From assembly GCF_003790525.1 (NCBI RefSeq), contig NZ_CP033635.1: a stretch of DNA of 64,000 bases; one strand, written 5' to 3'. Shown here in pieces: positions 12,912 to 20,292 of the stretch. The notes beneath the pieces are model-generated. The model saw nothing but the letters and a program-made list of their open reading frames with translations, was not told the DNA's origin and did not search any database. The DNA comes from Escherichia coli (GTDB taxonomy: Bacteria > Pseudomonadota > Gammaproteobacteria > Enterobacterales > Enterobacteriaceae). Both the position numbers and the translations under genes were made by a program. Position 1 is the first letter of the stretch, and each line of letters opens with the position of its first letter.

Positions 12912-12988
12912 TGGCGGAACGGACGGGACTCGAACCCGCGACCCCCTGCGTGACAGGCAGGTATTCTAACCGACTGAACTACCGCTCC
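12912..12988 (-). tRNA. aspU: tRNA-Asp (GUC), distal tRNA of rrnH operon
   Basis: Same tRNA-Asp sequence as at 4691-4767, located immediately downstream of the 5S rRNA. Confidence 0.97.
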
Positions 12989-16156: not shown

Positions 16157-16330
16157 TCACAACCCGAAGATGTTTCACTTCAGAGTTGCGAAAATTTGAG
16201 AGACTCACGAACAACTTTCATTGTTCAGTGTTTCAATTTTCAGCTTGATCCAGATTTTTAAAGAGCAAAACTTCGCAGTGAACCTTTGCAGGTACACTCT
16301 GAAGTATTTTTTATTTAATCACTACAGAGA

Positions 16331-16593: not shown

Positions 16594-18135
<1,542 letters not shown>

Positions 18136-18260
18136 AAAAGTTTGATGCTCAAAGAATTAAACTTCGTAATGAATTACGTGTTCACTCTTGAGACTTGGTA
18201 TTCATTTTTCGTCTTGCGACGTTAAGAATCCGTATCTTCGAGTGCCCACACAGATTGTCT

Positions 18261-18279
18261 GATAAATTGTTAAAGAGCA
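18261..18279 (-). promoter_or_regulatory. rrn leader boxA antitermination element
   Basis: Reverse complement reads TGCTCTTTAACAATTTATC, the conserved rrn boxA. Confidence 0.8.
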
Positions 18280-18319
18280 GTTGCGACGCGGCCTTCAGCT
18301 CACTGTCGTGAGGTGGCGT

Positions 18320-18347
18320 ATATTACGCTTTCCTCTTTCAGAGTCAA
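18320..18347 (-). promoter_or_regulatory. rrnH P2 promoter (-35 TTGACT, 16-bp spacer, -10 TAATAT)
   Basis: Hexamers read on minus strand at the expected distance upstream of 16S; architecture matches rrn P2. Confidence 0.7.
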
Positions 18348-18429
18348 CCCTGAATTTCAGGATTTTTCTCTTCAACCGAACCGGCTGTTTGTGTGAAGTG
18401 ATTCACATCCGCCGTGTCGATGGAGGCGC

Positions 18430-18480
18430 ATTATAGGGAGTCGTTTCAGGAAGACAAGCGGAAAAATGCATTTTTATTTC
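18430..18480 (-). promoter_or_regulatory. rrnH P1 promoter (-35 TTGTCT, 16-bp spacer, -10 TATAAT, GC-rich discriminator GCGCCTCC) with upstream A/T-rich UP-like element
   Basis: Hexamers at 18452-18457 and 18430-18435 on minus strand; A/T tract 18461-18480 just upstream; typical stringently controlled rrn P1 layout. Confidence 0.7.
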
Positions 18481-18500
18481 AACCGCTCATCTTTTAATCA

Positions 18501-19073
18501 TTACGCCGGTTTTTGCTGCTTTTTTATCGCTTGCGGCAGGTCTGCCAGGCTATTTAACACCCAATCCGCCGCGTTTTCTGCTTCAGGCGTAACAGGTTTA
18601 CCCGTACGCACCAGCACTTTTGTTCCCACGTTCGCCGCAGCCGCTGCCTGCATATCTTCTAATTTATCGCCCACCATATAAGAAGCGGCCATATCAATAT
18701 GCAAATAATCGCGTGCCGATAAAAGCATCCCCGGATGTGGTTTGCGGCAGTCGCAGACCTGGCGAAACTCTTCAACACTACCCTGCGGATGATGCGGGCA
18801 ATAATAGATACCATCCAGATCGACATCGCGGTCCGCCAGCGACCAGTCCATCCACTCGGTCAGCGTTTCAAACTGTGCTTCAGTAAATTTACCGCGAGCA
18901 ATGCCAGACTGGTTGGTTACTACCACCAGCGCAAAGCCCATTTTTTTTAGCTCGCGCATGGCGTCAATAACACCGTCGATAAATTCAAAGTTGTCGATCT
19001 CATGGACATAGCCGTGATCGACATTAATGGTGCCATCACGGTCAAGAAAAATTGCGGGTACGCTCTTCGCCAC
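18501..19073 (-). CDS. gmhB: D-glycero-beta-D-manno-heptose-1,7-bisphosphate 7-phosphatase (HAD family)
   Basis: ORF translation [17 protein letters not shown]... with HAD motif DRDGT. Confidence 0.92.
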
Positions 19074-19162
19074 CTTTTATAGCTCCTTAATAAGGCATGT
19101 GACGCTAGTATCGCATGTTTCGACCTGCAAGAAAGTGCTCTTCGCATAAACCTGATTGATTT

Positions 19163-19186
19163 AGACGTCTGGATGCCTTAACATCC
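19163..19186 (+). promoter_or_regulatory. Candidate MetJ operator (tandem met boxes) upstream of metN
   Basis: Perfect AGACGTCT octamer at 19163-19170 followed by two degenerate octamers; metNIQ is a known MetJ-regulated operon. Confidence 0.45.
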
Positions 19187-19260
19187 ATTTCATTGACGGC
19201 GTTGCCCGTTCCAGGCATTCGAAATGCCACGACTAACTTAATGACGATAATAAATAATCA

Positions 19261-20292
19261 ATGATAAAACTTTCGAATATCACCAAAGTGTTCCACCAGG
19301 GCACCCGCACCATCCAGGCGTTAAACAACGTCAGCCTGCATGTGCCAGCTGGACAAATTTATGGCGTTATCGGTGCCTCAGGCGCGGGTAAGAGTACACT
19401 TATACGTTGTGTAAACCTGCTGGAGCGCCCAACCGAGGGTAGCGTGCTGGTTGATGGCCAGGAGCTGACCACGCTGTCAGAATCTGAGTTGACTAAAGCT
19501 CGCCGCCAGATTGGTATGATTTTCCAGCATTTTAACCTGCTCTCTTCGCGTACTGTTTTTGGCAACGTGGCTCTGCCGCTGGAGCTGGACAACACGCCGA
19601 AAGACGAAATCAAACGTCGCGTGACGGAATTGCTGTCATTGGTTGGTCTTGGTGATAAGCATGATAGCTATCCGTCGAACCTTTCTGGTGGGCAGAAACA
19701 GCGTGTGGCGATTGCCCGTGCGTTAGCCAGCAATCCTAAAGTATTGCTGTGTGATGAAGCCACCAGCGCGCTGGACCCGGCAACGACACGTTCTATTCTC
19801 GAACTGCTGAAAGACATCAACCGCCGTCTGGGTTTGACGATTCTGTTGATCACTCACGAAATGGACGTTGTGAAGCGCATTTGTGATTGCGTGGCGGTGA
19901 TCAGCAATGGCGAACTGATCGAGCAGGACACGGTAAGTGAAGTGTTCTCGCATCCGAAAACGCCGCTGGCGCAGAAGTTTATTCAGTCGACCCTGCATCT
20001 GGATATCCCGGAAGATTACCAGGAACGTCTGCAAGCGGAGCCATTCGCTGACTGCGTGCCGATGCTGCGTCTGGAGTTTACCGGTCAATCGGTCGATGCC
20101 CCACTGCTTTCTGAAACCGCGCGTCGTTTCAACGTCAACAACAACATTATTAGCGCGCAGATGGATTACGCCGGTGGCGTTAAGTTCGGCATCATGCTGA
20201 CTGAAATGCACGGCACACAACAAGATACGCAAGCCGCCATTGCCTGGCTGCAGGAACACCATGTAAAAGTAGAGGTACTGGGTTATGTCTGA
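19261..20292 (+). CDS. metN: D-methionine ABC transporter ATP-binding protein, 343 aa
   Basis: Walker [13 protein letters not shown] signature LSGGQKQR, C-terminal NIL domain. Confidence 0.94.

Follow-up and report, generated by a model that had tools for sequence, protein, structure and literature searches.

The rrnH locus and its control region

The window analysed here is a 64-kb stretch of Escherichia coli DNA in which gmhB and an rrn operon follow one another on the minus strand (Table 1). A 521-nt query laid over their junction matches strain SMS-3-5 and other E. coli strains at 100%, in records annotated gmhB / 16S ribosomal RNA, and the shared rrn part of this query finds about seven matching places per genome. 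gmhB lies directly upstream, the 16S–23S spacer carries tRNA-Ile (GAT) and tRNA-Ala (TGC), a distal tRNA-Asp (GTC) follows the 5S gene at 12912–12988 (−) (ARAGORN), and K-12 MG1655 has the identical layout of metN, gmhB and rrsH. The locus is therefore rrnH, as a first-pass annotation of this DNA had named it, rather than one of the other six E. coli rrn operons. An Rfam match to StyR-44 (105 bits; 16164–16263, −), a known family derived from the rrn spacer, lies in the 16S–23S spacer just upstream of 23S rRNA. The region described below is very probably the canonical, long-studied control region of E. coli rrnH, read on the minus strand. Positions relative to P1 are given such that −n corresponds to window coordinate 18421 + n, the start being placed as at rrnB P1, 9 nt after the −10 hexamer; on this scale, the TAA stop codon of gmhB (18503–18501, −) occupies −82 to −80.

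Table 1. Features of the gmhB–rrnH junction, in window coordinates
Feature	Coordinates	Strand	Remarks
16S rRNA, complete bacterial	16594–18135	−	Rfam; 23S rRNA and two tRNAs downstream
Rest of the 16S leader (5′ flank of pre-16S rRNA)	18136–18244	−	up to the mature 16S 5′ end at 18135 (Rfam)
boxC-like element, G/T-rich, TGTGTGGG	18245–18252	−	invariant in alignment A1
boxA antitermination element, TGCTCTTTAACAA	18267–18279	−	exact match; invariant in all eight sequences of A1
boxB-like hairpin	18283–18308	−	just upstream of boxA; RNA fold −9.7 kcal/mol versus −13.5 in K-12 rrnH
rrnH P2	18312–18347	−	−35 TTGACT 18347–18342, 16-nt spacer, −10 TAATAT 18325–18320; start expected a few nt downstream
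rrnH P1 core	18421–18457	−	−35 TTGTCT 18457–18452, 16-nt spacer, −10 TATAAT 18435–18430; scan match 10/12
P1 discriminator, GCGCCTCC, then +1 A	+1 at 18421	−	start assigned by rrnB P1 homology
UP-element-like A/T-rich tract, TGAAATAAAAATGCATTTTTC	18461–18481	−	−60 to −40; 17/21 A/T; aligned with the rrnB P1 UP element
Predicted Fis site I, centre −71, GATTAAAAGATGAGC	18485–18499		intergenic; spans −78 to −64; score 12
Predicted Fis site, centre −91, GCAGCAAAAACCGGC	18505–18519		inside gmhB codons 185–190; score 10, with G at −7 and C at +7
Predicted distal Fis site, centre −134, GGGTGTTAAATAGCC	18548–18562		inside gmhB codons 171–176; score 13/13
gmhB ORF, 190 aa	18501–19073	−	ORF list; annotation of identical E. 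coli records and K-12
metN, divergent	begins 19261	+	

A consensus scan of 18000–19300 gives five promoter-like sites, compared with 1.7 ± 1.1 in shuffled sequence, and two of the five, both on the minus strand, sit where P1 and P2 should be. The window was then aligned to the DNA upstream of each of the seven K-12 rrn operons (loci L001–L007; eight sequences, alignment A1). The hexamers of both promoters fall in register with those of all seven operons, which supports the tandem P1/P2 reading of the first-pass annotation and argues against misassignment of the P1 hexamers. The P1 core, CCCTATAATGCGCC, is invariant in all eight sequences, as are the columns of the GCGCC(A/T)CC-type discriminator and the P2 −35 hexamer TTGACT; the P2 −10 is TAATAT or TATTAT (TAWTAT). 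P2 is identical here to that of K-12 rrnD, rrnE and rrnH, and the P1–P2 interval is likewise of the rrnD/E/H sequence type. The A/T-rich tract, also noticed on first reading, aligns with the rrnB UP element (Table 1). All the elements expected of an enterobacterial rrn P1 can thus be found in the sequence, namely the hexamers and their spacer, the discriminator, the UP tract, and Fis site I with further sites upstream; about 110–120 nt downstream of P1 follows a sigma-70 promoter of the form TTGACT-16-TA(A/T)TAT, as expected of an rrn P2. A promoter-like match inside the gmhB coding sequence (TTGACG-16-AAAAAT, 9/12; 18940–18967, −) is probably due to chance.

Downstream of P2, sequence and folding reveal the order of a boxB-boxA-boxC leader, with a hairpin upstream of boxA and a boxC-like element downstream. 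The boxA of the first-pass annotation is the right one, and from boxA to 16S the leader is near-invariant among the seven operons, only two columns of A1 being variable. The boxB-like hairpin region, between P2 and boxA, carries two substitutions relative to K-12 rrnH, at 18309 and 18293 (−). One, G>A, loses a closing G–C pair, and the other, A>G, lies in the loop; the hairpin is predicted to be less stable than its K-12 counterpart (Table 1).

K-12 rrnH (gmhB/yaeD–rrsH) is the same locus, and over A1, about −185 to +320 relative to the P1 start, the window differs from it at nine positions. All else in this stretch is identical, including the three predicted Fis sites, the UP tract, the hexamers of both promoters and boxA. 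In addition to the two changes in the boxB-like hairpin, two fall in the P1 spacer at −24 and −23 (18445–18444, −; AA in the window strain, GC in K-12), and three more single-base differences occupy A1 columns 21 and 91, upstream, and 565, in the leader. The gmhB ends account for the remaining differences: that of K-12 reads GCA CAA TGA (191 aa) and that of the window strain GCG TAA (190 aa).

The likeness to rrnB extends to architecture and spacing: the 16-nt P1 spacer, TATAAT, the discriminator type, a G…C 15-mer at −71, an A/T-rich tract from −60 to −40, the P2 TTGACT, and an identical boxA and downstream leader are common to both. The two differ in the P1 −35 (TTGTCT in rrnH, TTGTCA in rrnB), at discriminator position −3 (T in rrnH, A in rrnB), in the sequence of the UP tract, in the P1–P2 interval, which is shorter in rrnH, and in the placement of the upstream Fis-like sites (−91 and −134 in rrnH, −102 and −143 in rrnB). 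Based on what is established for rrnB P1, we infer the start site, the function of the UP and Fis elements, and antitermination at rrnH. Sigma-70 RNA polymerase would start at the two tandem promoters. P1, with its near-consensus −10, 16-nt spacer and G+C-rich discriminator, would be the growth-rate- and ppGpp-sensitive promoter, boosted by contacts between the UP tract and the C-terminal domains of the alpha subunits, while P2, about 110 nt downstream, would supply basal expression. Transcripts from either promoter would carry boxB-boxA-boxC, where a Nus-factor antitermination complex is expected to assemble before 16S is reached.

Fis-like sites and the end of gmhB

The Fis motif is 15 bp long and has an A/T-rich core between a G and a C, with Y–R steps at ±3–4 (PMC4784862). 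We scored 15-mers with a hand-made rule drawn from that description, rather than with a trained matrix, giving credit for G at −7 and C at +7, for pyrimidine–purine steps at ±3–4 and for an A/T-rich centre, up to a maximum of 13. Applied to the DNA upstream of rrnB P1 as a positive control, the rule gives its three highest scores to sites centred at −71, −102 and −143, the classical Fis sites I–III reportedly described by Ross et al. (1990). Upstream of rrnH P1, the rule returns Fis-like sites at −71, −91 and −134 (Table 1). Over the 64-kb window, scores of at least 10 occur once per 69 bp, of at least 12 once per 831 bp, and of at least 13 once per 6400 bp (10 sites). One site scoring at least 12 and one scoring at least 13 within 70 bp exceeds what chance would give, about 0.12 per 100 bp. 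The −91 site, taken by itself, is weak, because its score is of the level that recurs every 69 bp. Among the seven K-12 operons, six have a G…C 15-mer scoring at least 11 and centred exactly at −71; the exception is rrnE, in which the G…C 15-mer lies one base further upstream and scores below this cut-off.

The first-pass annotation had the zone where Fis sites would be expected overlapping the gmhB 3′ end and stop, and had ended the control region at 18560. The overlap is real for the predicted −91 and −134 sites, which lie inside the coding sequence. It does not extend to site I, which begins 2 nt after the gmhB TAA and sits just outside the gene in the window strain. (The gmhB of K-12 has one more codon, and its TGA reaches over the first two bases of predicted site I.) The boundary, for its part, falls slightly short, as the predicted distal site runs 2 nt beyond it.

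Overlap of this kind is not special to rrnH. The co-directional murI stop lies 82–84 nt before the rrnB P1 start, leaving Fis sites II and III in coding DNA, and the co-directional hemG stop lies 86–88 nt upstream of the rrnA P1 start; three of the seven K-12 operons, rrnH (gmhB), rrnA (hemG) and rrnB (murI), thus have upstream Fis sites in coding DNA. At rrnG, too, a co-directional protein gene, clpB, precedes a P1 with a −71 Fis-like site. However, clpB is followed by a strong stem-loop and U tract, and its stop is about 70 nt further from 16S than that of gmhB, so that the rrnG Fis sites are intergenic and read-through is blocked. The upstream neighbours of rrnC, rrnD and rrnE are divergent.

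Fis dimers bound upstream would boost P1, from the proximal site at −71 and from the further predicted sites at −91 and −134. Judging by their sequence, these last two may be occupied by Fis. It is also possible that only the intergenic −71 site matters. The matches at −91 and −134 would then be by-products of coding, from the Lys/Gln-rich tail and the Asp-Trp-Val-Leu/Ile-Asn-Ser motif, with little or no effect on P1 activation, and the gmhB 3′ end would not truly serve two purposes. We regard this as somewhat unlikely. The low score at −91 speaks for it, as does the fact that site I gives most of the Fis activation at rrnB P1. Against it, several Fis complexes form on rrnH DNA. Fis and UP contributions at all seven rrn P1 promoters, with Fis footprints, were reportedly described by Hirvonen et al. 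in 2001. In gel shifts, purified Fis gives multiple complexes on an rrnH promoter fragment, in the number previously reported, and the activity of an rrnH P1+P2 reporter falls in a fis mutant (PMC4696680). That Fis binds the rrnH promoter region is, accordingly, already published.

Transcription across the junction

A terminator scan of the minus strand from gmhB to P1 finds no terminator-like site. The same scan misses the evident clpB terminator upstream of K-12 rrnG (L002, about 455–495, −), which makes its negative call weak when taken alone, and we therefore folded the regions directly. Such false negatives arise when the stem continues into the U tract through A–U pairing. In the control fold, the clpB terminator reaches −28.3 kcal/mol (z = −4.1) and has its U tract, and the rrnA and rrnB junctions fold into no structure (z = +0.7 and +1.1, respectively). 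The rrnH junction can form a hairpin at about 18491–18449 (−), of −10 kcal/mol and z = −2.4 on the 46-nt piece 18490–18445, with 11 outer pairs in a longer fold. The paired arms of this hairpin come from Fis site I (right half, AAGAUGAGCGG) and from the −35 region (CCGCUUGUCUU), and the palindromic UP tract, AAAAATGCATTTTT, lies between them. Most pairs are A–U or G–U, the U-rich stretch lies inside the stem, and what follows is CCUGAAAC; as no U tract comes after the stem, we rejected this hairpin as a canonical gmhB terminator. Neither the scan nor folding, then, reveals an intrinsic terminator (a G+C-rich stem-loop with a U tract) between the gmhB stop and P1.

In the K-12 Term-seq tables, the stretch from the gmhB stop (223408) to P1 contains no 3′ end, which may only reflect low expression of gmhB. 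The 3′ ends that are listed lie at 222856 and 222898, early in gmhB, and at 223637 and 223766 (PMC7815308 supplement). The third of these corresponds to about 18269 (−) in the window, in or just after boxA, and its listed 60-nt flank runs past boxA to …TTTATCAG; the fourth corresponds to about 18140 (−), 5 nt before mature 16S. Both leader ends are presumably products of pausing or processing.

That the few gmhB transcripts read on into the rrn leader is the simplest expectation, and a plausible one, given the missing terminator and the missing mapped 3′ ends. The few polymerases that transcribe gmhB would most likely continue through the Fis, UP and P1 DNA. Alternatively, gmhB transcripts may end upstream of or within P1, either through Rho once the ribosome has come off at the stop codon or at the weak hairpin at 18491–18449, and the sharing of DNA with rrn signals would be trivial. 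The folding of the rrnH junction, in a place where rrnA and rrnB have no such structure, lends some support to this idea, as do the false negatives of the scan. Even so, we consider it unlikely. The hairpin is built mostly of A–U and G–U pairs and leads into CCUGAAACGAC rather than a U tract, the 80 nt between the stop and the P1 start would be short for Rho loading and release, and the Term-seq tables are empty over that interval. Searches of the literature for gmhB/yaeD read-through into rrnH, and for "rrnH P1", returned nothing specific.

Fixed spacing and a sliding stop codon in the Enterobacteriaceae

Because gmhB stops about 80 nt short of the P1 start, with no canonical terminator in between, the predicted upstream Fis sites come to lie within its last 25 or so codons. 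Scanning with the GmhB protein, one genome per species, gave 80 loci (L008–L087) from about 25 genera of Enterobacteriaceae, so that 81 sequences could be compared. Nearly all 80 loci end at a contig edge a few hundred bases past gmhB, which is what a repeated rrn operon would lead one to expect. Wherever a locus extends as far as P1, exactly 638 nt separate the gmhB start from the −10 hexamer, and indels are absent. GmhB nonetheless ranges between 185 and 191 aa, its length depending solely on where the stop codon falls (18496–18507, −): the window strain has GCG TAA and 190 aa, and other Enterobacteriaceae have 185–190 aa, ending in TAA, TAG or TGA. Within E. coli, the 55-nt allele around the gmhB stop is identical in 1422 of 5257 genomes. 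Column conservation across genera outlines site I, the UP tract (most columns at least 0.9), the −35, the −10 and the discriminator (at least 0.9), and is lowest, among the parts of the promoter, in the P1 spacer.

From the gmhB start to −40, a good Fis-like site is kept in at least half of the 81 sequences at five centres only: −71 (100%), −91 (99%), −134 (86%), −383 and −445. Between −150 and −60, no Fis-like position other than the first three is conserved. The G…C 15-mers at −383 (about 18797–18811; 100% of the sequences) and −445 (about 18859–18873; 65%) lie deep inside gmhB, far from any promoter, and are probably by-products of conserved codons. Their conservation implies that coding constraint alone can preserve Fis-like matches, which calls for caution with the −134 site and favours the possibility that −71 acts alone. 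Over the −134 core, third-position conservation is 0.76, compared with a gene mean of 0.64, and 14% of equal-sized runs are as high (rank 0.14), so that this synonymous-site test detects no significant excess there. The strongest synonymous conservation in gmhB is found elsewhere, in codons 5–12 at the 5′ end and in codons 130–139. Conservation of the −134 site could thus be explained by the coding sequence alone.

At the −91 site, some observations speak against a coding by-product. Its G at −7 and C at +7 are present in all 81 sequences. In most other genera the site spans the gmhB stop, and the two boundary bases persist although the bases between them change. The G at −7 is the synonymous third base of Lys185 (AAG), invariant in the 81 sequences, whereas AAA is the commoner codon at other gmhB lysines (0.85 at codon 152 and 0.56 at codon 159). 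Codons 184–186 as a group are 0.96–1.00 fixed at the codon level. These patterns are suggestive of some constraint on the gmhB 3′ end beyond coding, and, together with the lack of gmhB–P1 indels in any genus despite a variable protein tail, they weigh against a role for −71 alone. One way to account for them is that the end of gmhB also carries, as a second code, the rrnH upstream activator. The phasing of Fis sites would bar indels between gmhB and P1 throughout the family and fix both the synonymous choices in codons 184–186 and the G/C boundaries of the −91 site, while the stop codon is left to slide, giving proteins of 185–191 aa. We put this forward tentatively, as a proposal with somewhat less than an even chance of being right.

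The first-pass observation is correct, and what it describes is a known, textbook element. Few bacterial control regions have been studied as closely as rrn P1 and P2 with their UP elements, Fis sites and boxA leader, and their recognition here has little importance beyond correct annotation. All that is mildly new is that, throughout the family, gmhB stays coupled to P1 without indels while its stop codon slides. The fixed spacing, the sliding gmhB stop and the conserved Fis-like sites within gmhB make a tidy example of regulatory DNA inside coding sequence. They also advise caution in recoding or deleting gmhB, as part of the rrnH upstream activator would be lost with a clean deletion or a synonymous redesign. 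If the second code proposed above is real, the architecture of an rRNA promoter, more than the enzyme, would dictate how long the C-terminal tail of GmhB is and what sequence it has.
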